Both the position numbers and the translations under genes were made by a program. Positions 7,194-22,649 of a stretch of 64,000 nt of DNA are shown piece by piece. The stretch's first letter is position 1; each line of letters opens with the position of its first letter. Origin of the DNA: Alphaproteobacteria bacterium (GTDB lineage Bacteria; Pseudomonadota; Alphaproteobacteria; MPNO01); NCBI GenBank assembly GCA_965248835.1, contig CBDFLJ010000002.1, forward strand, positions 544,001 through 608,000. Direction: 5' to 3'. The notes under the pieces are model-generated. The model did no database searches, was not told the origin of the DNA, and saw only the letters and a program-made list of their open reading frames with translations.

Positions 7194-8525
7194 CTACGGC
7201 GTCACCGCGGCGATCCGGGCGGCGATCCGGGCGGCGAGCGCGCGGGCCTCGGCGGGCTCCGACAGGGCCCATCCGGCCGCGCTCAGCGATCGAATCTCGT
7301 CGTCTTCAAGACCAGCGGCTGCCAGGACGCGGGCGATCTTTTCGGCGAGCCCGGCATCGTCGAGCCGGTTGCCCGGGTCGCCCAACGCCTCGATGACGCG
7401 CCGCTCGCAGGATCGCCCGGCGGCCGTCACCGTGACCGCGGCGGGAAAGCGCGCGGGGAAGTGCGCCATCAGAGCGGGCGCGTCATCGGCGCCGACCGAG
7501 ACCCGTTCCATGAGGCCGATGATTTCCTCGTCGAACGGAAGGACGGACCGGGCGACGTCATAGGCCGCATCGGGGCGCAGCACCGCCAGGGCGATCTGGT
7601 AGGCGGCGCTGACCAGGGTGGAGGACCGGTCATCCGGTGTGGCCGTGCGCGCGATCATCCCGGCATAAGGCGGCGGCACCCGCACTTCGATGCGCTCGAT
7701 CGCCGATGGGTCGAGCCCGTCGGCGATCAACCCGCGCACCGCCTCGACCGCAGCGACGGCCTGTTTTGCCGAGCAGTACGGTTTGAGGCTGAGCGCGGCG
7801 TAGACGCAGGTCTCGCCCAGCCCGTCGGTGAGCCGGTCGGTGTCGGCCTCTATGCCGTGGGTCGCAAGCAGCCAATCCGGTCCGTCGAGCAGCCCGGCAT
7901 CGCCGCCGAACCCCGACGCCGCGGCCCGCGCGGCGGTCGCGCCGGCCTCGGCCGCCACGGCGATCAGCAGCCAGCGCGGGGCGCGCGGCGCGTCCCGGCG
8001 GCCGACCGCGCCGGCGGCAAGGTTCAGCGCGATGGCGAGTGCGTCCGCCATCCGCCCTTCATCGAGCCCGATCAGCCTGCCGATCGTGCCCGCCACGCCG
8101 ACCGGGGCGCAGAAACAGGTCGGCCAGATCCCGCGGTAGAGCAGCCGCGCCCCGTCGATCGCAGCACCCAGCCGGGTCATCAGCTCGGTCCCGACCCACA
8201 GCGCATCGGCCAGGCGGGCCGGATCGGCGGCCGGGTCCCGCTCGATTGCGGTCAGCGCCGCCGGCACGACCACCGACGACGGTGTCACGCAGGAGGCGCA
8301 ATGGATGTCGTCGACTTCGGTCAAACGGACCGCCGCCACCCGGTATCCGAGCGGCCGGTCGGGCAGAACGGCGCGCAGGGCGCGTGCGTCCTCGGTCGTA
8401 TGGCCGACGACGGCGGCCGCCAACGCGTCGACCACATGGCGCCGCTGGATTTCCGCCATTGCCGCGCCTTGCGAGCCCATCGTCGCGCTTGCGGCGAACC
8501 CGCCCAGGGCCGAAAGGACGCTCAT
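7194..8525 (-). CDS. MmgE/PrpD family protein (atypical active site)
   Basis: 'RLTEVDDIH', 'VVVPAAL', 'SLKPYCSAKQ', 'FPARFPAAVTV...GDPGNRL'; ATGA overlap with the upstream gene. Confidence 0.85.
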   Translation of the reverse strand: MSVLSALGGFAASATMGSQGAAMAEIQRRHVVDALAAAVVGHTTEDARALRAVLPDRPLGYRVAAVRLTEVDDIHCASCVTPSSVVVPAALTAIERDPAADPARLADALWVGTELMTRLGAAIDGARLLYRGIWPTCFCAPVGVAGTIGRLIGLDEGRMADALAIALNLAAGAVGRRDAPRAPRWLLIAVAAEAGATAARAAASGFGGDAGLLDGPDWLLATHGIEADTDRLTDGLGETCVYAALSLKPYCSAKQAVAAVEAVRGLIADGLDPSAIERIEVRVPPPYAGMIARTATPDDRSSTLVSAAYQIALAVLRPDAAYDVARSVLPFDEEIIGLMERVSVGADDAPALMAHFPARFPAAVTVTAAGRSCERRVIEALGDPGNRLDDAGLAEKIARVLAAAGLEDDEIRSLSAAGWALSEPAEARALAARIAARIAAVTP

Positions 8526-9670
8526 GACCGGCCCGAACGCCGCAGGATTTCCACCCGGTCCTCGCCGATGCACACCATCGCCGACAGGAGCGCGCACCCG
8601 CGCTCCGGATCCGCCGTCCCGACGCGCAGCGTGTATATGCCGCCGGGTTCGAGCACCGCCTCACCCTCGGGCTTCAGGTCGGGCGGCTCGGCCAGCGACA
8701 GACCGATGCGGTGGCCGAGGCAGCCGCCCAGCACAGGATGGGCCGGCCGGCCCTCGATCCGCGCCGCGGCGGCAAGCGCGCCGGCCCGGCTGCCCGGCCG
8801 CACCGCCCCCAGCAGCTTATCGAGCGCGGCCTGTGCGCCGGCGAGCGCATCCGACGGCCGATCGGCGAACGTCACGAAAGCATCCGCCCAATAGCCCGCA
8901 TATTTGACCGCGATATAGGCGAGCAACGGGTCCGGGCGCCCCTCCACCACGCCGAAGAAGGGCACAAGCGTTGCACCGCCGTCGGTGCTGAACAGAACCC
9001 GGACGTCGTGGGCGGCCTGCGCCCGGGCGCACCGTTCGGCCTCGATCGCGGCCTTCATGGCGTTCGCGCCGCCGCGCCAGGCCGATTCCATGGCCGCCGC
9101 GGCTTCATCGACGAGGCGGCAGGCCTCGCGGATCATCGCTACCTCGCGCGGCCGTCGCGCGTGCAGAACCGGCTCGAAGGCGGCGTCCGCCGGCGCCAGG
9201 GAGACCGTCCCGGCGAGGCTGTCGTTCAGCATGCCGACGAACGGCGCCCGCATCAGGTCCCGGCCGAGCAGGCCGACGGCGACAGCGGCGTGCGGCTGGC
9301 TTTCCAGGAACGCCGCGAGCCACGGATCGAACGTCTCCGGCCAGCTCCAGCCGGGGTGAACCTCGGCGATCCAGGTCATCAGGCGCATCGCCGGCATGTC
9401 GCGCGCGCCGATGGAGATCAACAGCCGCGGCTCGCCGTCGCGCGGCAGCATGGCGAACGCCCAGCGCATGCGCGGGATGAAGTTCGTCAGCCAGGCGAGG
9501 GCGCGGTGCTCGGTGGCGTCGCCGTAGACGAAAAGGGCGCGCCAGCCGTTGTCGTCCATCAGCGCGTTCGCCTGGCCCATGCGGATCTGGAACTCGTCGG
9601 CCGGCATCCGGTCGTGGTCGAGCCCATAGGCGCCGAGCAGGACGACAGGGTGCATCGTCGCCATGCTCAT
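8522..9670 (-). CDS. M24/creatinase-fold protein, metal ligands largely lost
   Basis: Creatinase-like N-domain ('EFQIRMGQ...LAWLTNF'); pita-bread C-domain 'YAGYWAD', 'LGHRIGL', 'LEPGGIYTL'. Confidence 0.75.
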   Translation of the reverse strand: MSMATMHPVVLLGAYGLDHDRMPADEFQIRMGQANALMDDNGWRALFVYGDATEHRALAWLTNFIPRMRWAFAMLPRDGEPRLLISIGARDMPAMRLMTWIAEVHPGWSWPETFDPWLAAFLESQPHAAVAVGLLGRDLMRAPFVGMLNDSLAGTVSLAPADAAFEPVLHARRPREVAMIREACRLVDEAAAAMESAWRGGANAMKAAIEAERCARAQAAHDVRVLFSTDGGATLVPFFGVVEGRPDPLLAYIAVKYAGYWADAFVTFADRPSDALAGAQAALDKLLGAVRPGSRAGALAAAARIEGRPAHPVLGGCLGHRIGLSLAEPPDLKPEGEAVLEPGGIYTLRVGTADPERGCALLSAMVCIGEDRVEILRRSGRS

Positions 9671-10800
9671 GGCGCGATCCTGTCGGGCGTTGCGGCATTG
9701 GCGCTCAATGCGCGGGCGCCGTCCGGGGTCACCACGACCGGCTCGCCGCACATCAAATAGCCGGTCTCGGGAAGGTACTGGTTCGGGTGGAGGACGAAGA
9801 CCATCCCGGTCTCGAGCACGGTCTCGTTGTCGGCCGACACGTCACCCGGAAGGTTGGAGGTCAAGCCGAGCCCGTGGCCGCGCACCCGCATGTAGGGCGG
9901 TCGGCAATACGCCCCATAGCCGGCCTGGCTGATCGCCTGGTTCACCGCCTCGGTCACATCGGCCATCCTCGCTCCCGGCACCGCCGCCTCCCGGCCGCGC
10001 TCCATCGCCGCCTGCAGGATGGCGTAGTTCTCTTCATAGCCGGGCGGACCGGTTCCGATCGCGACCGTGCGGCAGATCTGGACGAACTGCCCCTCGAAGC
10101 TCGGCGTGATCTCGGCAAGGATGAGGTCGCCTTCGGCCAGCACGCGCCCGCCGGCGGCCCGGACGGCGAGGTTGTGCTGCGAGGCGCTCATCAGAAGGAA
10201 GTTGTCGTCGCCGCCCTGGGCCTTCATGTGGCAGTAGATGTCGGCGGCGAGCGCGTATTCCCGCACGCCCGGCCGGGCAACCTCCAGCAGCCGCCGGTAT
10301 CCGCTTTCCGCGATCCGCGCGGCTTGCTCGGCGCGCGCGATCTCCTGCGCGCTGCGGCACCGCGCGATGGTGCGGACCAGCCCTTCCATCGCCCTCGCCT
10401 TGCCGCCGAACAGGTCCCCGAGCCGCTCGGCCAGGGGCAATGCCAGCAGCGACAGCCCGTCGGTGATGACCGAACCGCCGGAAAGCCGGTCGCGTGCCAG
10501 CACGCGCCCCACGGTCTCGACCAGGTCGTCGGTGCCCAGCGTTTCGTCGGCGGTCGCGGCGGCGGCGGCGCGGCCGGCGTCCCAGGCCGGCGTGATAATC
10601 AGCGTCGCCGGGCCGTCGCACCGGACGATCACGGCCGCATCGCCCATCTGCTTCACCCCGCTGAGGACGAAGACCGCGTTGGGCTCGAGAAAGGAATGGA
10701 ACCCGGACGCAAACGCGACGAGCGCGTCGGCGCCTTCGGCCTCCAGCCGCTCGACGACGGTCCGGCGGCGCATGACCGAGGTATCCAAGGCCGGGATCAT
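9667..10800 (-). CDS. M24 family (Xaa-Pro peptidase/creatinase-like) hydrolase with variant ligands
   Basis: 'RSAQEIA', 'RPGVREY', 'GDLILAEITP...QICRT', 'RGHGLG', 'GMVFVLHPNQY'. Confidence 0.85.
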   Translation of the reverse strand: MIPALDTSVMRRRTVVERLEAEGADALVAFASGFHSFLEPNAVFVLSGVKQMGDAAVIVRCDGPATLIITPAWDAGRAAAAATADETLGTDDLVETVGRVLARDRLSGGSVITDGLSLLALPLAERLGDLFGGKARAMEGLVRTIARCRSAQEIARAEQAARIAESGYRRLLEVARPGVREYALAADIYCHMKAQGGDDNFLLMSASQHNLAVRAAGGRVLAEGDLILAEITPSFEGQFVQICRTVAIGTGPPGYEENYAILQAAMERGREAAVPGARMADVTEAVNQAISQAGYGAYCRPPYMRVRGHGLGLTSNLPGDVSADNETVLETGMVFVLHPNQYLPETGYLMCGEPVVVTPDGARALSANAATPDRIAP

Positions 10801-10966
10801 GGATCGACAACCATCATTTTCCTCACTGCCGCGCATCATCCTATCCTATATGCCGGCCGACAGCCGCCGCCGCCTCGAGCGATGGATCGACGGCTGTCAG
10901 CGTTTCCTTGGAGCGCTGCGGGTCGCTATCGTCGCGCTCGCGACCGGTCCGAATCTGGAGATGACA

Positions 10967-13300
10967 ATGGGTGAATACGGGGTGGGGCAGTCGGTCCCGA
11001 GGCTTGAGGACGAAACCCTTCTGACCGGGCGGGGTTCGTTCAGCGACGATGACGACGGCGCGGGCGCGCTGCGCGGCCATGTCCTCCGCGCCCCGCACGC
11101 CCACGCCCGGATACTTTCGATAGACACCGCCGCCGCGGCGCGTTGCCCCGGGGTCGCGGCGGTGCTTGTCGGCGCCGACTACCGCGCCGATGGGCTCGGC
11201 GCGATCCCCCATATCGGCCCGCCGGTCAAACGCCGCGGCGGTGCGGATCTCGACGCGCCGCCCTACTACCCGCTCGCGGACCAGCGGGTGCGCCATGTCG
11301 GCGAGGGCGTGGCCTTCGTGCTCGCCGACACGCCGGAACAGGCAAAGGATGCCGCCGAGCGCGTCGTGGTCGACTACGAAGCGCTGCCGGCGGTCACGGC
11401 GACGGACGAGGCGCTGAAACCGGGCCGCCCCGGCGTCTGGGAGGGCTGCCCCGGCAACGAGGCCTTCGTGTACGCGATCGGCGATCGGGCGGCGACCGAC
11501 GCCGCCTTCGCCAAGGCCGACCATGTGGTCCGTCGACGGCTGGATATCTCGCGGGTGCTGGCCAACGCGATGGAGCCGCGCGGCTGCCTGGCGCATTACG
11601 ACCGGCGCCGCGGCGCCTTCCGGCTGCGCGCGCCGGTCCAGCACCCCTTCGTCGTGCGCGGCGTCCTGGCCCGCCAGATCTTCGGCATCGACGAGCGGCA
11701 GATCCATGTCGAGGTCGACGACGTGGGCGGCAGCTTCGGCATCAAGGCCAACATTTATCCGGAATATCTGTTGGCGCTCTGGGCGGCGCGGCGTCTCGGC
11801 CGGTCGGTCAAATGGACCAGCGAGCGCAGCGAAGGCTTTCTGTCGGACTTCCACGGCCGGGACAATCTCACCGAGGCCGAGCTCGCGCTCGATTCCGACG
11901 GACGGTTCCTCGGTCTGAGGGTGCGCACGATCGTCAATCTCGGGGCCTATCTGTCGCCGCTGGGCGCCGGGCCCGCGGTCAACAATCTCGGCAGCCTGGC
12001 CGGGGTCTATCGGACGCCGGCCGCCCATGTCGAGGTCCGCGGCGCCTTGAGCCACACCCAGCCGACGGCGCCCTATCGCGGGGCCGGCCGGCCCGAGGCG
12101 GCCTATGTCATCGAGCGCCTGATCGACGCGGCGGCGGCCGAGCTGGGGATCGACCGGATCGCGCTGCGGCGGCGCAACATCATCGCGCCGGACGCGCTGC
12201 CGTTCGCGACGCCGCTGGGGTTCACCTACGATTCGGGGGAATTCGAGGCCAACATGGACCAGGCCCTGGCGCTCGCCGACGCGCAAGGGTTCGCCGCACG
12301 CCGCTTCGCGGCCGCCGGGCGCGGCAAGCTGCGCGGGCTCGGCCTCGCCAACGCGATCGAGCGCGCGGCACCGCCCGGGCTGGAGTATGCCGAGATCCGT
12401 TTCGATCCCTCGGGCGCCGCGACCGTCCTGTGCGGGGCGACGTCCCAGGGCCAGGGCCATATGACGATCTTCGCCCAGGTCATCGCCGACCGGCTGGGGC
12501 TTGCACCGGATTCGCTGCGCTTCGTCCAGGGCGATACCGACCGGCTGGCCTTCGGGTTCGGTGCCGGCGGCTCGCGGATTTCGGCGATGGGGACGGCCGC
12601 GGTGATGCTCGCCGCCGACCGCGTCCTCGCCAAGGCCCGGATCATCGCCGCCCACGCGCTGGAGGCCGCCGAGGCCGACATCGCGTTCGACGACGGACGG
12701 TTCGTCATCGCCGGCACCGACCGGTCGATCGCCCTGGCCGAGGTCGCCAGGCGCGCCTTCCAGCCGGCGATGCTGCCGGCCGGCCTCGATCCCGGGCTCT
12801 ATGAGAGCGGGACCTATCGGGGGAGCGTGGCGTCCTATCCCAACGGCTGCCATGTCTGCGAGGTCGAGATCGACCGCGAGACCGGCGCCGTGGAGATCGT
12901 CCGCTACGTCGTGGTTGATGATTTCGGCACCCTGATCAACCCGCTGCTGGTCAAGGGCCAGGTCCATGGCGGGGTCGCGCAAGGCGCGGGTCAGGCGCTG
13001 ATGGAGGCGATGGTCTTCGACCGCGACAGCGGCCAGGTCCTCGCCGGCTCGTTCATGGACTACGCGATGCCGCGCGGCGCCGATCTGTGCGCGATCGAGG
13101 TCGAAAGCAATCCGGTGCCCACCGCGACCAACCCGCTGGGGGTCAAGGGGGCGGGCGAGGCCGGCAATGTCGGGGCGCTGCCGGTGGTCATCAGCGCGGT
13201 CGAAGATGCGCTGTCCGCCCTGGGGATCCGCGATTTCGCCATGCCGGCGACGCCCGAGCGGGTATGGCGGGCGATCGAAGGCGCGCGGGTCGGGCGGTGA
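10967..13300 (+). CDS. Xanthine dehydrogenase/CoxL-CutL family molybdopterin-binding large subunit
   Basis: 'GQSVPRLED..LLTGRG', 'DVGGSFGIK', 'PYRGAGRPE', 'QGQGH', 'GQVHGGVAQG', 'NPLGVKGAGEAG'. Confidence 0.93.
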   Translation: MGEYGVGQSVPRLEDETLLTGRGSFSDDDDGAGALRGHVLRAPHAHARILSIDTAAAARCPGVAAVLVGADYRADGLGAIPHIGPPVKRRGGADLDAPPYYPLADQRVRHVGEGVAFVLADTPEQAKDAAERVVVDYEALPAVTATDEALKPGRPGVWEGCPGNEAFVYAIGDRAATDAAFAKADHVVRRRLDISRVLANAMEPRGCLAHYDRRRGAFRLRAPVQHPFVVRGVLARQIFGIDERQIHVEVDDVGGSFGIKANIYPEYLLALWAARRLGRSVKWTSERSEGFLSDFHGRDNLTEAELALDSDGRFLGLRVRTIVNLGAYLSPLGAGPAVNNLGSLAGVYRTPAAHVEVRGALSHTQPTAPYRGAGRPEAAYVIERLIDAAAAELGIDRIALRRRNIIAPDALPFATPLGFTYDSGEFEANMDQALALADAQGFAARRFAAAGRGKLRGLGLANAIERAAPPGLEYAEIRFDPSGAATVLCGATSQGQGHMTIFAQVIADRLGLAPDSLRFVQGDTDRLAFGFGAGGSRISAMGTAAVMLAADRVLAKARIIAAHALEAAEADIAFDDGRFVIAGTDRSIALAEVARRAFQPAMLPAGLDPGLYESGTYRGSVASYPNGCHVCEVEIDRETGAVEIVRYVVVDDFGTLINPLLVKGQVHGGVAQGAGQALMEAMVFDRDSGQVLAGSFMDYAMPRGADLCAIEVESNPVPTATNPLGVKGAGEAGNVGALPVVISAVEDALSALGIRDFAMPATPERVWRAIEGARVGR

Positions 13301-13391
13301 CGAACCCCGCGCCCGCGCCGTCCGGATCCGTCGGGATAGGCCTGGATACCGGTTCTCGGAGGCGAGACATCGCCCTGTCCGGGAGGGGCGC

Positions 13392-13465
13392 TGGAGCGGG
13401 CAGCGGGAATCGAACCCGCACGAGCAGCTTGGGAAGCTGCCAGGCTACCACTACATCATGCCCGC
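13392..13465 (-). tRNA. tRNA-Gly(CCC)
   Basis: Reverse complement GCGGGCATGATGTAGTGGTAGCCTGGCAGCTTCCCAAGCTGCTCGTGCGGGTTCGATTCCCGCTGCCCGCTCCA; anticodon CCC, CCA end. Confidence 0.96.
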
Positions 13466-13476
13466 GTTCGGCGGCC

Positions 13477-13504
13477 ATTCTATCGCCGGGGCGGGCCATC
13501 ACAA
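13477..13504 (-). promoter_or_regulatory. Putative sigma70 promoter of tRNA-Gly(CCC)
   Basis: Minus strand TTGTGA-N16-TAGAAT, 11 nt upstream of the tRNA. Confidence 0.45.
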
Positions 13505-13655
13505 GCGCCGAGTTTCCCTGGACCCGCCGGGCGGGCGATGTCATTACCGACGCCGGATCAATGGACGTGCGCCGGGAGAACGGCATGGGACCCGGTCCTT
13601 GCGAAGACGACCCGACGGGGCCGGTGGCGGGCGTGCGGGGCGTACGGGGCATGCC

Positions 13656-14051
13656 ATGAGCGCGGCGCTGGTCGGACGCCTTGCCAGCGGAATCGGCCAG
13701 GGCCGGCACTTCACCCGGCTCGCCTGGGCGCGTGCGCAATTCATCGACAAGCTCGGCATCGATCCCCATCCCGGCACCGTCAACGTCATCATCGACGACC
13801 CCGATGCGATCACCGTCTGGGTGCGGCTGAAGCGCACCGACGGGATCAGGATCGACAACCCTGATGATGGCCCGCACGATTGCGACGCACGCTGCTTCAA
13901 GGTCGCGATCGAGGGCCGGATCGAGGCGGCCATCGTGCTGCCGGAGGTCGACCACTATCCGCCGGCCCAGGTCGAGATGATCGCCGCCGCGAATGTGCGC
14001 GACGCGTTGGGGATCGAGGACGGCGATCCGGTGCGGATCGAGATCCGGTGA
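13656..14051 (+). CDS. CTP-dependent riboflavin kinase, archaeal type (DUF120)
   Basis: 'GRLASGIGQGRHF...FIDKLGIDPHPGTVN' and 'AAIVLP...VEMIA..NVRDALGIEDGDPVRI' parallel the archaeal RibK pattern GxVxSGxGEG...LGFxPYxGTLN...EIIAPxxLRxxxxLxDGD. Confidence 0.8.
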   Translation: MSAALVGRLASGIGQGRHFTRLAWARAQFIDKLGIDPHPGTVNVIIDDPDAITVWVRLKRTDGIRIDNPDDGPHDCDARCFKVAIEGRIEAAIVLPEVDHYPPAQVEMIAAANVRDALGIEDGDPVRIEIR

Positions 14052-15158: not shown

Positions 15159-16022
15159 ATGAAGCTCGCCCGCTACAACGCCGACAAGCTCGGCCTGGTG
15201 AGAAACGAGCAGCTCATCGACGTCACCGAGGCGATCGATGCGATCGAGACGGCTGGGCAAGCCGGTTGGCCGCTGCCGCCGGGCGACCGGCTGATCGCCG
15301 CGATCGATGCGGTGCGCGCGCGCGTCGACGCGTTGCGCAAATCGGGCTTCGTCCAGCTCCATACCAGCGTCAGCCTCAAAAGCCCGGTGGCCAACCCGAC
15401 CAAGGTGATCGGCGCTCCGGCCAACTACCGTGCGCATATCGACGAGGCGAACGCCGATCCCGGCATCACCTTCGGGACCACGACGACGACGATCGAGGAC
15501 TACGGGCTGTTCCTCAAGAACCCCGTCCCGGTCGGCCCGGGCGAAGGGATTGCGCTGCCGTTTGCCGACCGCCGCACCGACCACGAGGTCGAGCTCGCGA
15601 TGATCATCGGCCGGACCGCCAGGAACGTCGCCCGGGCCGATGCGCTCGACTGCGTCGCCGGATACGCCATCGGCCTCGACATGACCGTGCGCGGGCGGGA
15701 GGAGCGCAGCCTCCGGAAGGCAGCCGACGGCTTCTCGGTGCTCGGCCCGTGGCTGGTCACCGCCGACGAGATCCCCGATCCCGATTCGCTGGCTCTCAGG
15801 CTCAGCGTAAACGGGGAATTGCGCCAGGACTCCTCGACCGCGATGCAGATCTTCGATTGCCGGCGGCTGATCGCCTACGCCTCGCGGTTCTACACGCTCT
15901 ATCCCGGCGACGTGATCATGACCGGCACGCCCGAGGGCGTCGGCCCGGTCGTGCCGGGCGACGTCATGACCTGCGAGATCGAAGGGATCGGCGCGATGGA
16001 GGTCGCGGTTCGCGCCGCTTGA
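15159..16022 (+). CDS. Fumarylacetoacetate hydrolase family protein
   Basis: 'ANYRAH', 'DHEVELAMIIG', 'GYAIGLDMT', 'LGPWLVT', 'LYPGDVIMTGTPEGVG'. Confidence 0.92.
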   Translation: MKLARYNADKLGLVRNEQLIDVTEAIDAIETAGQAGWPLPPGDRLIAAIDAVRARVDALRKSGFVQLHTSVSLKSPVANPTKVIGAPANYRAHIDEANADPGITFGTTTTTIEDYGLFLKNPVPVGPGEGIALPFADRRTDHEVELAMIIGRTARNVARADALDCVAGYAIGLDMTVRGREERSLRKAADGFSVLGPWLVTADEIPDPDSLALRLSVNGELRQDSSTAMQIFDCRRLIAYASRFYTLYPGDVIMTGTPEGVGPVVPGDVMTCEIEGIGAMEVAVRAA

Positions 16023-16033
16023 GCGGTCCCCGC

Positions 16034-17242
16034 CTACTTCTCCAGATCGAAGATCCGCTTGGCGTTGAGGCCGAGGATGTTGCGCTTGGCGTCTTCGTCG
16101 AGGAACGGGATGTCCCAGATCACCGCCGGCGGGTCGAAGTCCCAATGCGGCCAGTCCGAGGCGTAGAGGAGCTGGGTCCCGGCGTTGACCATCTCGAACG
16201 TCAGCTCCAGCGCCTTGGCGTGGTCGGTCTCCAGCGGCTGGCTGGTGTAGTACATCTCGGCCATGTATTCCGACGGCCGGCGCTTGAGCAGCGGCGCCTC
16301 CGAAGTGCGCATCATGTAGGTGTGATCGAGCCGCTGCATCAGCCACGGCACCCATGACAGCCCGCTCTCCATCCACACCACCGGCAGGTCCGGGAACCGC
16401 TCGGGCAGGCCGTTCATCACCCAGTTGGTCATATGCAGCACGTTGCACCAGACGAACGACAGCGCGTGCATCGAGCCGAAACGGTTGATCTGCATCATCG
16501 AGGGGTCCTGCCAGTAATAGCCGGCGTGAAAGCCGATCGGCAGGCGGCGCTCCTCGAGCGCGCGGTAGACCTTCATGTAGTGGTTGTGATGGACCGGCTT
16601 GTTGCGGACCGAGGTGACCATGAAGCCGACGATCCCCGGCGCGTCGCCGAACTTCTCGACCGTCTTCAGCGCCTCATCGGCGTCGTTGAACGGCAGGAAG
16701 GCCATGCTCTTGAGGTTCTTGTCCTGGGCGAGCAGGGTCTCGACCGTCCAGCGGTTGTAGGCGTTGCCCAGCAGCGGCTCCATGTCGAACTGCGGATGCA
16801 TGCCGAGGAACAGCATCGGCGTCGGGAAGACGATCTGCTTGTCGATCGACATCGACTGATAGGCGCGCCTGGCCAGCACCACGTCGCGGTGCAGCCCGTC
16901 CTCGGCCGCGTTCTCGCGCCGCGCGGCCTGGTGCGGGATGCGCCCGCCGCAATCCTGATAGCGCAGCGCGAGGTCGCCGTTCAGACCATAGGGCGGCGAC
17001 CCGGTCCGGTTCTGCAGGAAGTCCTCGGCCTGGCTGCGGATCACCTCGTCGTCGAGATAGCCGACGATGTCCGCCCAGGACTCGCTCTCGGTATGGTGGG
17101 AATCCATATCGACAATGAACACGTCGTCGAAATTGCGCGCATCGGCCTGACGCCGGGCGCGGGCGAGGATGTCGCGGGTGTCGGTCGCGACGCCGATCTG
17201 CCGTATCGGGTTCTCCCGTTGCGGCTCGAGTCCGGAATCCAT
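16034..17242 (-). CDS. Amidohydrolase-2 fold protein, candidate dimetal oxygenase subunit
   Basis: 'VDMDSHH', 'AYNRW', 'IGFHAG', 'NGLPERFPDL..VWMESG', 'LLYASDWPHWDFD', 'ILGLNA'. Confidence 0.85.
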   Translation of the reverse strand: MDSGLEPQRENPIRQIGVATDTRDILARARRQADARNFDDVFIVDMDSHHTESESWADIVGYLDDEVIRSQAEDFLQNRTGSPPYGLNGDLALRYQDCGGRIPHQAARRENAAEDGLHRDVVLARRAYQSMSIDKQIVFPTPMLFLGMHPQFDMEPLLGNAYNRWTVETLLAQDKNLKSMAFLPFNDADEALKTVEKFGDAPGIVGFMVTSVRNKPVHHNHYMKVYRALEERRLPIGFHAGYYWQDPSMMQINRFGSMHALSFVWCNVLHMTNWVMNGLPERFPDLPVVWMESGLSWVPWLMQRLDHTYMMRTSEAPLLKRRPSEYMAEMYYTSQPLETDHAKALELTFEMVNAGTQLLYASDWPHWDFDPPAVIWDIPFLDEDAKRNILGLNAKRIFDLEK

Positions 17243-17277
17243 TCAGTGTGCTCCCAATAGAGATTGCCGCCCGGCGG

Positions 17278-17595
17278 TCAGCCGTCCGTGCCCGGCCGGG
17301 GCCGGCGGAACCACATCGCCAGGTCGAAGGTGTTTAGGTTGCCGGCGTGCAGCATTTCGGTGACGGTCACCACGATGTCCGTCGCGGTCGCCGACTCGGT
17401 GGACAGGAACGGCAGGAAAACCCGGTCCTCCATCTCGACCTTGTTGGCGAACAGCCGGGCCCCGGCGGTCAGAAGCTGCTGGACGACCTCGTCGGGGACC
17501 GCCTCGGTCGCGCCGTCGTCCAGGGCCTTCTCGGCGATCGCGAGTGCCTTGGCGGCCGCCTCGCGGATCACCGCGATGTCGTCAGACGACGACAT
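17278..17595 (-). CDS. Small hypothetical protein coupled between Rieske and amidohydrolase genes
   Basis: 105-aa ORF with normal high-GC codon usage; overlaps the Rieske stop; C-terminal 'TATDIVVTVTEMLHAGNLNTFDLAMW'. Confidence 0.7.
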   Translation of the reverse strand: MSSSDDIAVIREAAAKALAIAEKALDDGATEAVPDEVVQQLLTAGARLFANKVEMEDRVFLPFLSTESATATDIVVTVTEMLHAGNLNTFDLAMWFRRPRPGTDG

Positions 17596-17953
17596 AGACC
17601 TCCCCTCCGTCGACCTTGACGTCGTATGGCTTGAGCCGGACGTTCCGGTCCCCGGGATGTCGGCCGGTCTTCAGGTTGTACTCGTAGCCGTGCCACGGGC
17701 AGACGATGTGCACGTCGGTCTCGGAGAATTTGAGGCCCTTGCTGGTCTTGTCCTCGCCCAGCACCTCCTCGACCTTGCCCAGGATCTTGCCCTGGCAGAC
17801 CGGCCCGCCCTGATGCACGCAGTTGTTCTCGTAGGCATAGAACTCGCCGCCGACATGGAAGACGCCGATCTCGATGTCGCCCTGGGCAACGATCTTCCGG
17901 TCACGGTCGCCGAAATCGGCCTGCTTGCCGACATAAATTTCCGCCACGCTCAT
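17582..17953 (-). CDS. Rieske [2Fe-2S] ferredoxin
   Basis: 'NNCVHQGGP' and 'IVCPWHGYEY' (CxH...CxxH). Confidence 0.93.
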   Translation of the reverse strand: MSVAEIYVGKQADFGDRDRKIVAQGDIEIGVFHVGGEFYAYENNCVHQGGPVCQGKILGKVEEVLGEDKTSKGLKFSETDVHIVCPWHGYEYNLKTGRHPGDRNVRLKPYDVKVDGGEVYVVV

Positions 17954-18026
17954 CCCCTTTCTGGATCCGTTGGTTTCACCGGCCCAGTTTAACGGTTAAG
18001 ACACCGAGACTCCAACGCCGCGCGCC

Positions 18027-19004
18027 TCAGGCCCGCAAGGCCTCGCAAAACACCGCCGGATCGACGTTGCCGCCCGAGCAGACGACGACCACCGTTCGCC
18101 CGCTCGCATCGAAGCCGCCGGACAACAGCGCCGCCATGGCGACCGCGCCGCCGGGCTCGGCGACGAGCTTGAGCCCGGAGAAGATCGCGGCCATCGCGCG
18201 CGCCACCTCGCGGTCGGACACGGCGATCCCGCGGGCCAGCAGCCGGCGGTTGATCGCGAAGGTAAGCGCACCCGGTTTCGGCGCGCGCAAGGCATCGCAG
18301 AACGTCTCTGCGCTCGGCGCGACCGACTCGCGGCTTCCGGCCAGGAGCGACCGCGCGGTGTCGTCGAAGCCGGCAGGCTCGACCGCGATCATCTCGACCG
18401 CGGGGAAGGCGTCCTTCATCGCGACCGCGATGCCGGCGATCAGCCCGCCGCCGCCGACCGGAACCAGGACGGCGTCGGGCACGATCCCCAGCCGGTCGAG
18501 GTCCTGGGCGATCTCCAGCCCGACCGTGCCCTGTCCGGCGATGATCCGCGGATCGTCGAACGGCGGGATCATGCGAGCGCCGGTCTCCTCGGCGATGGCA
18601 GCGGCCAGGTTCTCGCGGACCTCGGTGGTGCGGTCGTAGGCCACGATCCGCGCGCCCCACGCGCGGGTTGCCGCGATCTTCACCGCGGGCGCATCCGACG
18701 GCATGACGATCGTGGCCGAAACGCCATGGGCCGAAGCGGCCGCTGCGACCGCCTGGCCGTGGTTGCCCGACGAGTAGGCGATCACGCCCGCGCGGCGCCC
18801 GGCCTCGCCGAGGCTCGCGACCGCGTTCCAGGCGCCGCGGATCTTGAAGGCGCCGGTGCGCTGCAACATCTCAGGCTTGACCAGGATGCGCCCGCCGCCG
18901 CGCGCGCCGGTCTCCGGCCACGCCAACAGCGGCGTGCGGACGATCTTGCCGGCAAGCCGCGCCGCGGCCCGGGCGATGTCCTGCGGTCCGGGCTCAGATA
19001 CCAT
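18027..19004 (-). CDS. Threonine/serine dehydratase (PLP fold II)
   Basis: 'KPEMLQRTGAFKIRGA', 'SSGNHGQAVA', 'GQGTVGLE', 'PVGGGGL', 'EPGGA', 'SGGNVD'. Confidence 0.92.
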   Translation of the reverse strand: MVSEPGPQDIARAAARLAGKIVRTPLLAWPETGARGGGRILVKPEMLQRTGAFKIRGAWNAVASLGEAGRRAGVIAYSSGNHGQAVAAAASAHGVSATIVMPSDAPAVKIAATRAWGARIVAYDRTTEVRENLAAAIAEETGARMIPPFDDPRIIAGQGTVGLEIAQDLDRLGIVPDAVLVPVGGGGLIAGIAVAMKDAFPAVEMIAVEPAGFDDTARSLLAGSRESVAPSAETFCDALRAPKPGALTFAINRRLLARGIAVSDREVARAMAAIFSGLKLVAEPGGAVAMAALLSGGFDASGRTVVVVCSGGNVDPAVFCEALRA

Positions 19005-19842
19005 CGAGGAACGCATCGACCGCGGCCACGCATTCCGGCTCGGTCAGGGTCGGCGCATGGCCGGTGTCGCGGACCGTCACGCGCTCCAGACCGGGGTGTT
19101 CGGCGGCCATCTTGTCGAAGCATTCGGTGGTCAGCAGGCCCGACTTCTCGCCCCGGAATGCCAGCGTCGGGATGGCGCGCAAGCCGCGAAACAGCGGCCA
19201 CAGGTCGGGGACGCGCGTGCCGTTCTCGATCGTTGGACGGATGATGTCGACGTCCCAGTCGAAATGCAGCATCCCGTCCTCGCCCTCGCGGAAGGTGTTG
19301 CCGAGCATGCTCTCGAACATGGCCTCGGTCTGGAAGCACAGATCGGGCAGGAGCGCGCGCATCGATTGCCCGGCGGTCTCCCAGTCCGGCTGGGGCCGAT
19401 CGACGCGAAGATAGTCGATGATGGTCTTCAGCCCGGCGGGCCTCAGCTCCGGCCCGATGTCGTTGAGGATCACACCCGCCAGCGCCGCGGGCCGCGCCGC
19501 GCCGAGCCCCATCGCCAGCAGCCCGCCGAGCGAAGTGCCGACGACAACAACCTTGTGCAGATTGGCCAGACTCAGAAGCTGGATGATGTCGTTGAGGTAG
19601 GTCCGCGGATCGTAGTTGCGCCAATCGGGATCGTAGTCGGACCGGCCGCGGCCCCGGAGATCGGGGCACAGCACCCGCCGGTCGGCTGCGAGCCGGCTTG
19701 CGAAGCCTTCGAAATCCTTGGCGTTGCGGGTCAGCCCGGCCAGGCACAGGACCGGCACGCGCGGCGACAGCGCGTCGCCGTAGTCGCGGTAGTAAAGCCC
19801 CATCCCGTCCTGTGCGGTGTATCTTCGCGCGCGGTAGTCCAT
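18994..19842 (-). CDS. Alpha/beta fold hydrolase
   Basis: 'GLTRNAKDF', 'DLRGRGRSD', nucleophile 'GTSLGG', 'LNDIGP', 'GHAPTL'. Confidence 0.9.
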   Translation of the reverse strand: MDYRARRYTAQDGMGLYYRDYGDALSPRVPVLCLAGLTRNAKDFEGFASRLAADRRVLCPDLRGRGRSDYDPDWRNYDPRTYLNDIIQLLSLANLHKVVVVGTSLGGLLAMGLGAARPAALAGVILNDIGPELRPAGLKTIIDYLRVDRPQPDWETAGQSMRALLPDLCFQTEAMFESMLGNTFREGEDGMLHFDWDVDIIRPTIENGTRVPDLWPLFRGLRAIPTLAFRGEKSGLLTTECFDKMAAEHPGLERVTVRDTGHAPTLTEPECVAAVDAFLDGI

Positions 19843-19856
19843 CGCTGCGGTGACGG

Positions 19857-20543
19857 CTAGCCGATCACCAGCGGCGGCAGGTCTTCCAGCGTTGTCAGTT
19901 CGGCGTGAACCTCCCCGGGCAGCACCTCGGCCGGCTGGCCGAACCGGTTTATCCACGCCACGCGGAAGCCGAAGGCGGCGGCCCCGTTGGCGTCCCAGCC
20001 ATTGGCCGATTGGAAGCTGATCCGGTTGGCCGGCAGCTTCAACGCGTCGACCGCGATCTGATAGACCGTGGGGTGGGGTTTGAAGATGCCCGCCCGGTCG
20101 ACCGACAGGATCGAATCGATGACGTCGTCCAGCCCCGCATTCTTGACCGCCGCCACCAGCATCGTCGAGGAGCCGTTCGACAGGATCGCCGTCCTCAAGC
20201 CCGCCTCCTTGAGTGTTTCCAACGGCTTGCGAACGTCGGGATAGGCCTCCAGCGCGAGGTAGAGCTGCATCAGCCGGGCACGCAGCTCGGGATCGGACAG
20301 CCCCACCGCGCTCATCGCGTAGTCGAGCGCCGCGCCCGTGACCTGCCAGAAATCCTCGTACCGGCCCATCAGGCTGCGCAGCCAGGTGTATTGAAGCTGT
20401 TTCTGCCGCCACAGGGCGGACAGCTCATCGGCGCGTTCGCCGATCGAATCCCGGCAGCGGTCCACTGCGGAGTTGAAATCGAACAGCGTGCCGTAAGCGT
20501 CGAACACGCAGGCGCCGATGTCGTCAAAGGCCGGTGCGGTCAT
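19857..20543 (-). CDS. Haloacid dehalogenase type II (L-2-HAD-like)
   Basis: 'VFDAYGTLFD', 'WRQKQLQYTW', 'ILSNG', 'FKPHP', 'SANGWD'. Confidence 0.92.
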   Translation of the reverse strand: MTAPAFDDIGACVFDAYGTLFDFNSAVDRCRDSIGERADELSALWRQKQLQYTWLRSLMGRYEDFWQVTGAALDYAMSAVGLSDPELRARLMQLYLALEAYPDVRKPLETLKEAGLRTAILSNGSSTMLVAAVKNAGLDDVIDSILSVDRAGIFKPHPTVYQIAVDALKLPANRISFQSANGWDANGAAAFGFRVAWINRFGQPAEVLPGEVHAELTTLEDLPPLVIG

Positions 20544-20621
20544 CGGGACTCTCATCAGGGATTCGCATCACCCCGCACTATACCGCACACCCCCGCCGGG
20601 GCGGCGACAATCGAGACCCGG

Positions 20622-22649
20622 TCAGGGCGCGGGATCGACCATGCCGGCGGGCGCCGGCGTCTCGGCCACCAGCCCGGCCGCATCCCGGGTCATGGCGGGC
20701 GCGCCGAGCCAGGGCGCCGGACCGGGCGTGCCGAGCCGGTCGCGGTATATCTCCAGCCCCTCCAGCACCCGCTGGACATAGTTGCGGGTCTCCGGGAACG
20801 GCACCGATTCGATCCAATCGATCAGGTCGGTGTCGGGATCCCGCGGATCGCCGAAGGCGCGGATCCACCGGTCCGCGGCCCGGCGCCCGGCGTTGTAGGC
20901 CACGAGCGCCGGAACGTAATGGTTGTCGTAGCGATCCAGCAGGTCGCCCAGGTGGGACATGGCCAGACCGATATTGTACGCGGCGTCCCTGGTCAGCCGT
21001 GCGCGGCTGTAGCGCTGTCTGATCTTGCGCGCCGTCGCCCGGGCAGTCCCCGGCATGAGCTGCATTATCCCGCGCGCACCGGAACGGGAGATCGCGTTGA
21101 CCGCGAAATTGCTTTCCTGCCGGCCGATCGCCAGCATCAGCGCCGGCTCGATGGCTGTCCTGGGCATGTCTATCAGCGGGTAGGCGGCGTCCTCGATCGT
21201 CACGCCCTGCCGATAGGCGTAACGCGCGATGCGCACGCCGAGGTCCCGCCGACCGATGCCGCGCACCAGCGCGACGACCGGAAGCAGCCGTCGCGGGTCG
21301 GGATCCAACCGCGCGAGCCTGCCGGCGAACAGCGCGACCAGCTTGTCGCGCCCGATCTGATCGAGCAGCCGGACGGTGCGCACCAGCTCGCTGCCCTCGA
21401 ATGCGGCCCGTCCGGCCGGGTCCTCGCCGCGCGGCGGCGGCGGGCTCCGATCGTCCGCCCTGCCGATCATGCGGGCGGCAACCTGGCCGTAGAACGTCGC
21501 CCCGAACCGGGCCGCCTCGCGATACCACCGCTCAGCCGCCGCCGGATCCTCGAGGACCGTTGCCGCGCGCCCGGCCCAATAGGCCGCCCGTGCGCGGCTG
21601 ATCGGGAACCGCACCGTCGCGTACAGCCGTTCGAAGCGCATCAGCGCCTCGGCCGGGCGGTCGAGAAAGCGCAGCGCGAGCCAGCCGGTCAGCCATTCGG
21701 CTCTGGCGAATGATGCCGAGCCCGGCCACATCCCGTGATTGGACGTCAGCGCGAAAGCCTCGAGATATCTGCCTTCCTTCAGCTTGCCGCGCGCGATGAT
21801 CACCCGTTCCGTCCACCAGCGCTCGGCGTAGAGCAGGTCTTCGGGCAGGCCCGCCAACATTTCGAAGGCATCGTGCAGGCGGCCCTTGCGGCGGCGCCAG
21901 CGAACCCGCTCATACAGCAGGCCCGGATCCCTCTGCAGATGTGCAGGGACCCGACGGATCGCGCCATCGACCCCACCGCGCATCCGCGCGAGCCTCATCC
22001 GGGCACGCGCGAGCGCGCGCCGGGCCGCGCCCACCCTGGGCAGCATGCGCCGGACCTCCCGCCACCGCCGATCCCAGACCAGCCGGTCGAGCCGCCGCGC
22101 GTGCTCGGCGGCGCCCAGCGCGCCGCCGAACCGCAGCAGCAGGCGGCGCTCGGGCGCGCCTTTCAGGTTGCTGTGGATCCAGATGTTGCGCGCCAGCGCC
22201 GTCGCCCGCTCGGACTTGCCGATCGCGTCAAGCGCATCGAGCAGGGCGATGCGGCCCTCGCTCGTAAGCGGCGGGTAGCGGTCGAGCCAGGCGATGACCG
22301 CCTCGGGCGGCAGATCCGTTTTGTCGGGATCGGTCAGCGCCTCCTCGGCACGGCGCCGCAGCGAGAACGGCAAGGGCCAATCTGGGTTGGCCGCGATGAA
22401 CCCGGAAAGCGCATGGAAGGTGGCCTCGTTGCCGGCCTTGGTCATGGAAAGCCAGCGAAGCACCTTGTTCGGCAGCTTGTTTTCGGCACGACGCGAAAGG
22501 CTGAACGCCGCAGTCCAGTCCGATGCGTCCGCTGCGGCAAAGGCCCGGCGATAGATGTCCCGGTCCGTCTTTGACAGGATCTCCTGGCCGTGGACGGGAC
22601 CGCACGCGAGGATGAGGATCAGCGCCGTGGCGTTCAGAAGGCGGACCAA
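20622..22649 (-). CDS. slt: Soluble lytic murein transglycosylase (Slt70-like)
   Basis: Signal peptide, superhelical region, 'RQESNF', 'GARGIMQLMPGTA', 'AYNAG', 'IESVPFPETRNYVQRV'; divergent from dapA. Confidence 0.92.
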   Translation of the reverse strand: MVRLLNATALILILACGPVHGQEILSKTDRDIYRRAFAAADASDWTAAFSLSRRAENKLPNKVLRWLSMTKAGNEATFHALSGFIAANPDWPLPFSLRRRAEEALTDPDKTDLPPEAVIAWLDRYPPLTSEGRIALLDALDAIGKSERATALARNIWIHSNLKGAPERRLLLRFGGALGAAEHARRLDRLVWDRRWREVRRMLPRVGAARRALARARMRLARMRGGVDGAIRRVPAHLQRDPGLLYERVRWRRRKGRLHDAFEMLAGLPEDLLYAERWWTERVIIARGKLKEGRYLEAFALTSNHGMWPGSASFARAEWLTGWLALRFLDRPAEALMRFERLYATVRFPISRARAAYWAGRAATVLEDPAAAERWYREAARFGATFYGQVAARMIGRADDRSPPPPRGEDPAGRAAFEGSELVRTVRLLDQIGRDKLVALFAGRLARLDPDPRRLLPVVALVRGIGRRDLGVRIARYAYRQGVTIEDAAYPLIDMPRTAIEPALMLAIGRQESNFAVNAISRSGARGIMQLMPGTARATARKIRQRYSRARLTRDAAYNIGLAMSHLGDLLDRYDNHYVPALVAYNAGRRAADRWIRAFGDPRDPDTDLIDWIESVPFPETRNYVQRVLEGLEIYRDRLGTPGPAPWLGAPAMTRDAAGLVAETPAPAGMVDPAP

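Follow-up and report, generated by a model that had tools for sequence, protein, structure and literature searches.

Why would a bacterium encode a protein of a hydrolase superfamily in one operon with a Rieske ferredoxin and a small protein of no known family? This question is raised by three minus-strand genes at positions 16034 to 17953 of a 64,000-nt stretch of DNA from a member of the Alphaproteobacteria (positions 544,001 to 608,000 of contig CBDFLJ010000002.1, assembly GCA_965248835.1), which in its full length is called the window in the following. A first-pass annotation, made from the sequence alone, had proposed a new dimetal monooxygenase system at this place. Its description of the operon agrees with the open reading frame (ORF) listing of the window, which contains the three minus-strand ORFs at the same coordinates and in the same order, with the 3′ end of the Rieske gene overlapping the start of the small ORF by 14 nt (17582-17595) and a 35-nt spacer (17243-17277), carrying a GGGAG motif, between the small ORF and the gene of the 402-aa protein. 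Regarding function, motifs, alignments and predicted fold bear out the dinuclear oxygenase type, whereas the word "new" does not apply to the enzyme itself, since single-subunit oxygenases with Rieske partners are already in print. Having both family motifs, the 402-aa protein is, by the published in-silico definition, a predicted amidohydrolase-related dinuclear oxygenase (ARO). We consider it moderately probable that the operon encodes a Rieske-dependent ARO system in which the small protein is a partner in a shared electron-delivery module.

A Predicted Rieske-Dependent Oxygenase

AROs share the TIM-barrel fold of PF04909 (amidohydrolase_2) and were found by seeking PF04909 genes beside small Rieske genes; four single-subunit examples, including SfbO, have been solved (PMC10811679). 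The superfamily holds approximately 17,000 sequences (PMC13154177), 3,307 ARO sequences having first been found via Rieske adjacency (PMC10811679, PMC13154177). According to PMC13154177 (Liu, Nguyen, Britt and Rittle, 2026), an ARO is defined by an N-terminal D-x-H motif on the first β-strand and a C-terminal D-x-P-H-x-D/E motif with some 200 residues or more ahead of it, and none of the hydrolases or decarboxylases characterised within this fold is reported to have these motifs.

Pfam assigns residues 154-400 of the 402-aa protein to Amidohydro_2 (PF04909, 2.8e-24). The translation contains the sequence motifs VDMDSHH, FHAG, MESG and SDWPHWDFD that had been pointed out previously, and the predicted metal ligands are D47, H49, H239 (in FHAG), E292 (in MESG), D363 and H366, while D368 would belong to the second sphere. 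D47-S48-H49 lies within the predicted strand β1 and is invariant among the 26 members of this ARO clade from which all clade counts given here were taken; together with D45 it aligns with the D-x-D-x-H, ending in D-V/I-H, of the solved AROs 8sm6, 8sm7, 8sm8 and 8sm9, in weak-scoring N-terminal segments. D363-W-P-H366-W-D368 matches the D-Y-P-H-W/F-D of 8sm7, 8sm9, 8sm6 and AibH2, and the C-terminal D-x-P-H-x-D is kept in 25 of the 26 clade members. H239 and E292 align with the His and Glu ligands of 8sm7, 8sm6 and 6m1w_B, and all but one member keep the mid-barrel Glu, while the His is kept in all 26. In alignment with AibH2, SfbO and other solved AROs, none of the six ligand positions is missing, and the two family motifs are likewise in place.

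A single-sequence search of all PDB chains retrieved 8sm7 as best match (5.4e-35), followed by 8sm9, 6m1w_B (AibH2), 8sm6 (SfbO) and 8sm8, and these five ARO chains were well ahead of any decarboxylase. Using a profile of the 26 clade members, the values were 3.5e-51 for 8sm7, 5.7e-40 for 8sm9, 6.1e-39 for 8sm6 and 1.4e-34 for AibH2, compared to 5e-15 for the best non-redox decarboxylase, 3s4t. The AlphaFold2 model (predicted local distance difference test, pLDDT, 78) has eight β/α units, with β1 at residues 44-50 and β2 at 135-140, and Foldseek placed ARO chains on all of ranks 1-17 (top template modelling (TM) scores 0.66-0.71, query-normalised), with PtmU3 on rank 39. The clade has an N-terminal helix specific to it and an insertion of roughly 45 residues modelled with low confidence (residues 66-118).

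The Rieske protein matches PF00355 (9.5e-12) and also PF13806 and PF22543, and its cluster ligands are C45-x-H47 and C85-P-W-H88. The Trp of the C-P-W-H loop, W87, is invariant in an alignment of 24 Rieske proteins. In the published docking model of SfbO, a surface Trp of the Rieske partner stacks on the ARO residue termed γ5 (PMC13154177), and the invariant W87 and the γ5 residue of this clade (Phe in 23 and Met in three of 26) match this contact between Trp and aromatic residue.

Taken from the sequence, these features support an O2-activating dinuclear oxygenase of the PtmU3/AibH2/SfbO type that would be fed by the Rieske protein, rather than a hydrolase. Metal identity, O2 chemistry and substrate of the enzyme we infer from the same source: the TIM-barrel protein would bind two metals through its six predicted ligands, and the reduced dinuclear cluster would activate O2 and oxidise a C-H bond of a small substrate. 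The Rieske ferredoxin (121-123 aa) would hand over the electrons singly, after being reduced by a reductase encoded elsewhere; the annotated neighbours of the locus indeed include no reductase gene, as the first-pass annotation had stated.

A Small Protein Coupled to the Rieske Gene

Homologs of the small gene were surveyed in genomes (52 loci, mostly in alphaproteobacterial metagenome-assembled genomes, but also in Acidobacteria, Eremiobacterota/Vulcanimicrobiota and Actinomycetota) and in metagenomes (80 loci); in addition, 301 evenly sampled genomes of the class were searched for small, Rieske and ARO genes. A Rieske gene adjoins the small gene in 51 of the 52 genome loci, the exception starting at a contig end, and lies directly upstream in 74 of the 80 metagenome loci, the remaining six having less than 330 nt of upstream sequence. 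Every locus with sufficient room therefore has the small gene beside a Rieske gene (51/51 and 74/74), and the Rieske linkage expected among homologs is conserved in both surveys. An ARO gene adjoins in 49 of the 52 genome loci and is present in 70 of the 80 metagenome loci, where it comes after the small gene in 68 and ahead of the Rieske gene in two; eight of the ten metagenome loci without it have 580-3015 nt of downstream sequence. The gene order in the genome loci is Rieske-small-ARO in 47 and ARO-small-Rieske in two. Our own ORF calls covered 48 genome loci; in 47 of them the Rieske and small ORFs share sequence, and in 30 the shared stretch is the same 14 nt. Within the 301 genomes, the small gene was found at nine places in seven genomes, which are exactly the nine Rieske matches above 150 bits, while none of 13 weaker Rieske matches is accompanied by a small gene; AROs above 500 bits are confined to the same seven genomes. 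The small gene is thus linked more closely to the Rieske gene than to the ARO gene. Rieske adjacency of the ARO gene itself recurs across phyla, and among cultured organisms plasmids of Aminobacter and Neorhizobium, one of them pAA01 of Aminobacter aminovorans, bear the cassette (12 records).

Some cassettes are built differently. Two genome loci (G133:C7:262063-265255 and G169:C22:54244-57463) contain two AROs of the same clade, one in the order Rieske-small-ARO-ARO and the other with ARO genes flanking both sides, and the metagenome locus L076 has two AROs in tandem. On a Neorhizobium galegae plasmid (CP090555.1; L069, positions 7280-8508) the ARO is annotated as a 176-aa "hypothetical protein" and a 223-aa "amidohydrolase", which suggests that the gene is broken in that strain.

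The small protein has 11.3 kDa and an isoelectric point (pI) of 4.4, lacks Cys and contains a single, non-conserved His. Relatives form 291 clusters at 90% clustering of 5.8 billion proteins, and because of this conservation we regard the ORF as a genuine gene rather than a chance ORF; at 50% identity there are 334 clusters, 40 of them at ≤1e-10, with lengths of 62-159 aa among the 150 clusters listed. A relative is encoded on 438 metagenome stretches. "Hypothetical protein" is the sole name, and no Pfam domain is given, among the matches listed (at least 120 of the 291). In 81 diverse members W95 is invariant, T72 is conserved in 80 and F90 in 75, whereas no column has Cys or His in more than 23% and no carboxylate is invariant, although several carboxylates are conserved in this acidic protein. 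The small protein lacks a conserved set of metal or cluster ligands; its invariant or nearly invariant Trp, Phe and Thr look like parts of an interface.

The AlphaFold2 model of the small protein (pLDDT 93.6) consists of four helices (residues 3-26, 35-56, 71-84 and 89-96). Pfam has no family for it at E≤0.1, and a scan of the 81 members at E≤1 gave only scattered chance matches among the 25 families listed, none of which is an MmoB/DmpM effector or DmpK assembly family. A PDB profile search with the 81 sequences returned two chance matches (E 2.4 and 5.3), the ESM Atlas only hypothetical proteins with a best score of 0.84, and Foldseek no PDB match to the model at E≤10. VIA-align against 48,161 chains found generic helical hairpins only (best Z 5.8, residues 1-61), below the noise level of this tool for helical proteins. 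A three-chain prediction of ARO, Rieske and small protein, run without controls, gave a score of 0.00 and a mark of 0.32, which count neither for nor against binding. Two candidate clues were discarded. One 344-aa protein, in which an ARO fragment (180-340) is joined to some 100 unmatched residues and the small protein, was read as a frameshifted call on a single contig, and a long spacer between the His and Cys ligands of the Rieske protein does not mark dependence on the small protein, as a similar spacer occurs in pairs without it.

ARO Paralogs in the Same Genome

The genome that contains the window encodes eight ARO paralogs (44-58% identity; Table 1), but only two pairs of Rieske and small genes. 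Three genomes with a Rieske-small pair that lacks an adjacent ARO have five, four and seven same-clade matches elsewhere, three of the seven being partial or at contig ends. The paralogs occur in diverse catabolic settings, such as beside genes for large and small aconitase-like subunits and PhyH, for TRAP transporters and an amidase, for UbiD and an aldehyde dehydrogenase, for RidA and a P450, for TctA/DctPQM, and for TRAP and TTT transporters. One operon comprises ABC permeases, Rieske, small protein, ARO, MmgE/PrpD and a protein of the PEP-mutase family.

One paralog with 44% identity (L015 in Table 1) has a degenerate metal site, with D363 replaced by Asn, H366 by Ala and E292 by Asp, and with Ser at the position termed γ2. 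Its gene, flanked by one for a short-chain dehydrogenase/reductase (SDR) and one for a UbiD decarboxylase, has no Rieske gene in its vicinity, and the metal site recalls the non-catalytic AibH1 subunit of AibH1H2.

Comparison with Known ARO Systems

One barrel served by a Rieske ferredoxin has already been described, and the 402-aa enzyme is a new, uncharacterised member of this type. SfbO/SfbR of Litorilinea aerophila (8SM6, 8SMA, 9BU9, 9BUA; PMC10811679, PMC13154177) likewise combines a single-barrel ARO with a small Rieske protein. SfbO and the 402-aa protein are only about 21% identical (Foldseek rank 2), but share the six ligand positions, D-x-D-x-H, D-x-P-H-W-D and aromatic residues at γ4 and γ5, and the Trp of the C-P-W-H loop is common to their Rieske proteins; neither the main text of PMC10811679 nor the available part of PMC13154177 speaks of a third, small protein in connection with SfbO. 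The best match in both sequence and fold is 8SM7 (Foldseek E 1.5e-19, TM 0.71/0.81, 26% identity), an orphan ARO named "G. y4 TruffO" that is, by the list in the paper, D3EI84 of Geobacillus sp. Y412MC10. Like the 402-aa protein it is Rieske-associated, has conserved ligands and is functionally uncharacterised, but it is about 50 residues shorter and lacks the N-terminal helix and the 66-118 insertion.

The AibH1H2-AibG-AibF system of Rhodococcus wratislaviensis, which dates from 2021 (PMC7782822), is a 2-aminoisobutyrate hydroxylase (6M1W, 8FUL-8FUO; PMC7782822, PMC10401708). Its AibH2 is, like the 402-aa protein, an ARO subunit fed by a Rieske protein of the same operon, and the enzyme hydroxylates a C-H bond with O2. 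In contrast to the locus described here, which has one barrel, a small helical protein and no reductase, AibH1H2 is a heterotetramer with the degenerate barrel AibH1, and the reductase AibF is encoded alongside. The operon in the window contains neither a degenerate PF04909 subunit nor an FNR-type reductase, and no second PF04909 gene or reductase was found among the neighbours between 5451 and 31718.

The main texts of PMC10811679, PMC13154177 and PMC10401708, as far as available and figures aside, make no mention of any ARO operon with a small, accessory or hypothetical protein. The 2024 supplement tabulates neighbours by Pfam family (Table S1 of PMC10811679), and such a count would be expected to miss a protein without a family. 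As a Rieske-coupled ARO partner the small protein goes beyond the published ARO accounts examined and is possibly new. A further paper, on riboflavin catabolism (PMC12746152), was set aside, as by Rieske and amidohydrolase it means classical enzymes.

A Mixed Metal-Predictor Signature

The metal preference of AROs has been linked to second-sphere residues (Table 1 of PMC13154177). Mn-dependent, low-potential AROs are required to have a hydrophobic γ1, a hydrophilic γ2 and an aromatic γ4, and diiron, high-potential AROs a hydrophilic γ1, a hydrophobic γ2 and a non-aromatic γ4, with all three residues needed in either case. Rieske neighbours accompany the Mn class and are largely missing from the diiron class, in which γ4 is variable and mostly non-aromatic (PMC13154177). 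The predictor residues of the 402-aa protein are S48 (γ1), F139 (γ2), A361 (γ3), W367 (γ4) and F369 (γ5), γ2 being assigned from a hidden Markov model (HMM) alignment to the Thr of SfbO and from the end of predicted strand β2. In the clade, γ1 is Ser in 15 members, Ala in ten and Cys in one, γ2 is Phe in 25, and γ4 is aromatic in 25. Only γ4 of the 402-aa protein agrees with the Mn class; γ1 and γ2 agree with the diiron class, a Ser at γ1 being classed as hydrophilic in PtmU3 (PMC13154177), but the aromatic γ4 and the Rieske partner do not.

SfbO and 8SM7 both have Val at γ1 and Thr at γ2, which in SfbO goes with a low potential and a preference for Mn, as opposed to Ser and Phe in the 402-aa protein. 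The diiron, high-potential enzymes PtmU3 and DitZ (6OMP-6OMR, 8UYR) share the ARO motifs, a hydrophilic γ1 and Phe at γ2, but are far more distant (profile values 2.2e-14 for PtmU3 and 4e-6 for DitZ). One tested ARO combines a hydrophilic γ1 with "higher homology to the low-potential class", and A0A2K8M2W4, with a hydrophilic γ1 and no Mn(III)Fe(III) signal, is absent from Table 1 (PMC13154177). The cofactor of the 402-aa protein may be Fe2 or Mn/Fe; we lean modestly towards Fe2, because γ1 and γ2 are treated as shaping the first coordination shell (PMC13154177). Judged by these residues, the clade appears to break the published rule that ties second-sphere residues, metal choice and Rieske partnership to one another. 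This mixed signature goes beyond the published ARO accounts examined and makes the clade a useful test case for the rule.

Possible Roles of the Small Protein

The first-pass annotation had suggested that the small protein may be a structural subunit or a metal chaperone. Either of these roles, if exerted on the barrel protein, fits less well than that of a partner of the Rieske module, since the linkage of its gene to the Rieske gene is closer than that to the ARO gene. In the electron-delivery module that we favour, the small protein would be made in step with the Rieske protein through their overlapping genes, both would serve several ARO paralogs, and the small protein could dock, gate or stabilise the encounter of Rieske protein and ARO. 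It is plausible that a third partner with an aromatic residue would join them at this interface. A physical contact or effect of the small protein we infer from gene order and co-occurrence. Small proteins of comparable kind are known from other oxygenases: MmoB/DmpM-type effectors and DmpK/MmoD-type assembly proteins are cofactor-less, have a size of approximately 10-16 kDa and are encoded between hydroxylase and ferredoxin or reductase genes. The small protein resembles them in size, lack of a cofactor and gene position, but its predicted fold is all-helical, whereas that of MmoB-type effectors is alpha/beta, so that the likeness is an analogy only. By this analogy, the small protein might be an obligatory effector that uses its invariant Trp to bind the Rieske protein or the Rieske:ARO interface and acts as a gate for electron delivery and the activation of O2, in a distinct ARO class with a diiron-like first shell (γ1 Ser/Ala, γ2 Phe) and a docking surface like that of the Mn class. 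We consider this more specific proposal possible, but doubtful.

Several observations weigh against a role of the small protein in Rieske-dependent electron delivery to an ARO. Five Rieske-ARO pairs of another ARO clade in the 301 genomes have no homolog of the small protein even at E≤10, and the published table of the aib cluster lists no small protein, although locus tag 000805 is skipped there (PMC7782822, in the part available). The small gene is next to the ARO gene in most loci, and as the ARO-small-Rieske order is found on the Aminobacter plasmid besides the two genome loci, it always lies between or beside Rieske and ARO genes. A trans-acting assembly factor would produce much the same pattern of gene order and co-occurrence. 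The oxygenase assignment itself rests on a model of moderate confidence, with pLDDT below 50 in the H366 loop, and on low-scoring N-terminal alignments of D-x-H to the solved AROs; the metal call is uncertain, as the clade fits neither published bin, and γ2 was assigned from an HMM alignment and a predicted strand end instead of a solved structure.

The operons of phenol hydroxylase and methane monooxygenase encode small, cofactor-less assembly proteins, and correspondingly the small protein could help to assemble or metallate the dinuclear site of the ARO, being needed once for loading of Fe or Mn and dispensable for turnover. It is small, cofactor-less, encoded inside an oxygenase operon and acidic with several conserved carboxylates, and action in trans would explain both the presence of two copies for eight AROs and the pairs without an adjacent ARO; furthermore, chaperone delivery of Mn to AibH1H2 has been raised by Powell et al. 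2023 (PMC10401708). We nevertheless regard metallation as unlikely, because in the alignment of 81 members neither a Cys or His column nor a carboxylate common to all is found, W95 being the one invariant residue and T72 and F90 nearly so, because the overlap ties the small gene to the Rieske and not the ARO gene, and because members of other ARO clades, among them solved enzymes that acquired their metals in E. coli, do without such a protein. Still less likely is a structural hydroxylase subunit that replaces the degenerate AibH1 and shapes the active-site lid or oligomer. The frequent contact of small and ARO genes in genome and metagenome loci, the N-terminal helix and the insertion of the clade, which could need a partner, and the lack of an adjacent second barrel gene would agree with such a subunit. 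However, a ratio of eight AROs to two small genes, the existence of Rieske-small pairs without an adjacent ARO and the translational coupling to the Rieske gene are at odds with it.

These alternatives presuppose an oxygenase. The 402-aa protein might instead be an ordinary non-redox PF04909 hydrolase or decarboxylase with a Rieske gene beside it by coincidence; its Pfam label is only Amidohydro_2, and LigW, ACMSD and gamma-resorcylate decarboxylase are matched as well (1e-11 to 5e-15). Since it possesses both ARO-specific motifs, matches ARO structures better than decarboxylases by 20-35 orders of magnitude and belongs to proteins whose Rieske adjacency recurs across phyla, we consider this highly improbable.

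Gene Calls and Genomic Context

A Shine-Dalgarno-like motif precedes each of the three ORFs, and the GC content at third codon positions is 0.92, 0.93 and 0.87 in the 402-aa, small and Rieske ORFs, respectively, a signature of genuine coding frames in a genome with about 69% GC. The Rieske gene probably starts at GTG 17947, yielding 121 aa, and not at ATG 17953, because the orthologous proteins begin with M-A-E/D-I/L-Y (alignment of 24). A scan of 15800-20800 for promoters and terminators detected no signal exceeding that of shuffled sequence.

Table 1. Positions of the operon genes and their upstream neighbours in the window, and of the further ARO paralogs in the same genome (G000; contigs C1 and C2).
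Feature	Position	Strand	Remarks
ARO catalytic subunit, 402 aa	16034..17242	-	ATG start; PF04909 TIM barrel
Small conserved protein without known family, 105 aa	17278..17595	-	ATG start; homologs and synteny
Rieske [2Fe-2S] ferredoxin, 123 aa as called	17582..17953	-	ATG start; PF00355
PLP-dependent protein of the serine/threonine-dehydratase family	18027..19016	-	73 nt before the Rieske gene
Alpha/beta-hydrolase	domain ~19764 down to 18994	-	Upstream neighbour
HAD hydrolase, type II haloacid-dehalogenase family	19857-20555	-	TIGR01428, 231 bits (cut-off 125)
ARO paralog	C1:838493-839659		
ARO paralog	C1:1908435-1909601		
ARO paralog	C2:2165667-2166857		
ARO paralog	C1:177530-178723		
ARO paralog	C2:2514337-2515488		
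ARO paralog	C2:2489285-2490436		
ARO paralog	C2:438989-440125		= L015:7926-9173; degenerate metal site

The gene preceding the operon encodes a pyridoxal phosphate (PLP)-dependent dehydratase, for which the best NCBIfam model is threo-3-hydroxy-L-aspartate ammonia-lyase (316 bits, under the cut-off of 452 bits); a functional link to the oxygenase is uncertain. The alpha/beta-hydrolase and haloacid dehalogenase (HAD) genes further upstream are considered mere neighbours. In the 52 genome loci, the flanks contain the PLP dehydratase 20 times, the alpha/beta-hydrolase 25 times and the HAD hydrolase 28 times, as well as a FAH-family gene (34) and an enolase-superfamily gene (27), which are convergent and downstream of the gene of the 402-aa protein. 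These five neighbour families are shared only by related Alphaproteobacteria; the distant loci examined yielded none of them, and in two loci (L028 and L052) unrelated genes on the opposite strand separate the PLP dehydratase from the Rieske gene. As the neighbours are thus interrupted or absent elsewhere, the attempt to derive a substrate from gene context was abandoned, and no substrate is named.

The conserved core is devoid of transporter, regulator and reductase genes. Distant members of the cassette adjoin genes for TauE, for SsuA-like transporters or for hydantoinases, and from these varied neighbours we conclude that the module serves varied chemistry. In two distant proteobacterial loci, L064 (3681-4601) and L067 (1113-4519), the cassette lies beside a TauE/SafE sulfite-exporter gene, accompanied in L067 by an SsuA/NMT1-type ABC importer, which hints at organosulfonate oxidation in this sub-branch, by analogy to the proposal for SfbO. 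A candidate reductase, and no more than that, is the only gene of the putidaredoxin-reductase type (PF14759) in the genome, which is located about 155 kb away and has a weak Rieske-like match at a distance of 1.1 kb. An Aminobacter "FAD-dependent oxidoreductase" encoded beside the Rieske gene was rejected as a reductase, its N-terminal motif and many paralogs resembling a flavin monooxygenase.

Elsewhere in the window, a plus-strand ORF (13167-14051), situated between the large subunit of a molybdenum hydroxylase (CODH/XDH family, ~11000-13300) and an enolase-superfamily dehydratase, matches CTP-dependent riboflavin kinase with its C-terminal half (residues 173-293; PF01982/DUF120; NF040694 "ribK_Meth"). 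Two tandem genes similar to M24-family peptidases/creatinases, one of them weakly similar to the ectoine hydrolase DoeA, are followed by an MmgE/PrpD-family gene, and this uncharacterised catabolic trio, on the minus strand at 8522-10839 and 7194-8597, is located roughly 5 kb from the oxygenase operon.

Significance

Recognised only in 2019-2026, AROs use Fe2, Mn/Fe or Mn2 cofactors for the hydroxylation of unactivated C-H bonds. Their activity has been driven by ascorbate instead of the native Rieske chain (PMC10811679, PMC10401708), and native protein-protein contacts, possibly including chaperones, have been noted as unexplored (PMC10401708). The practical value of the locus will be modest until a substrate is found. 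Should the small protein be an obligatory effector, one module of Rieske protein and effector would drive four to eight ARO paralogs with different substrates, and native turnover could not be reconstituted without the small protein. With its gene coupled to that of the Rieske protein, a conserved protein without Pfam family offers a concrete candidate for a missing component.

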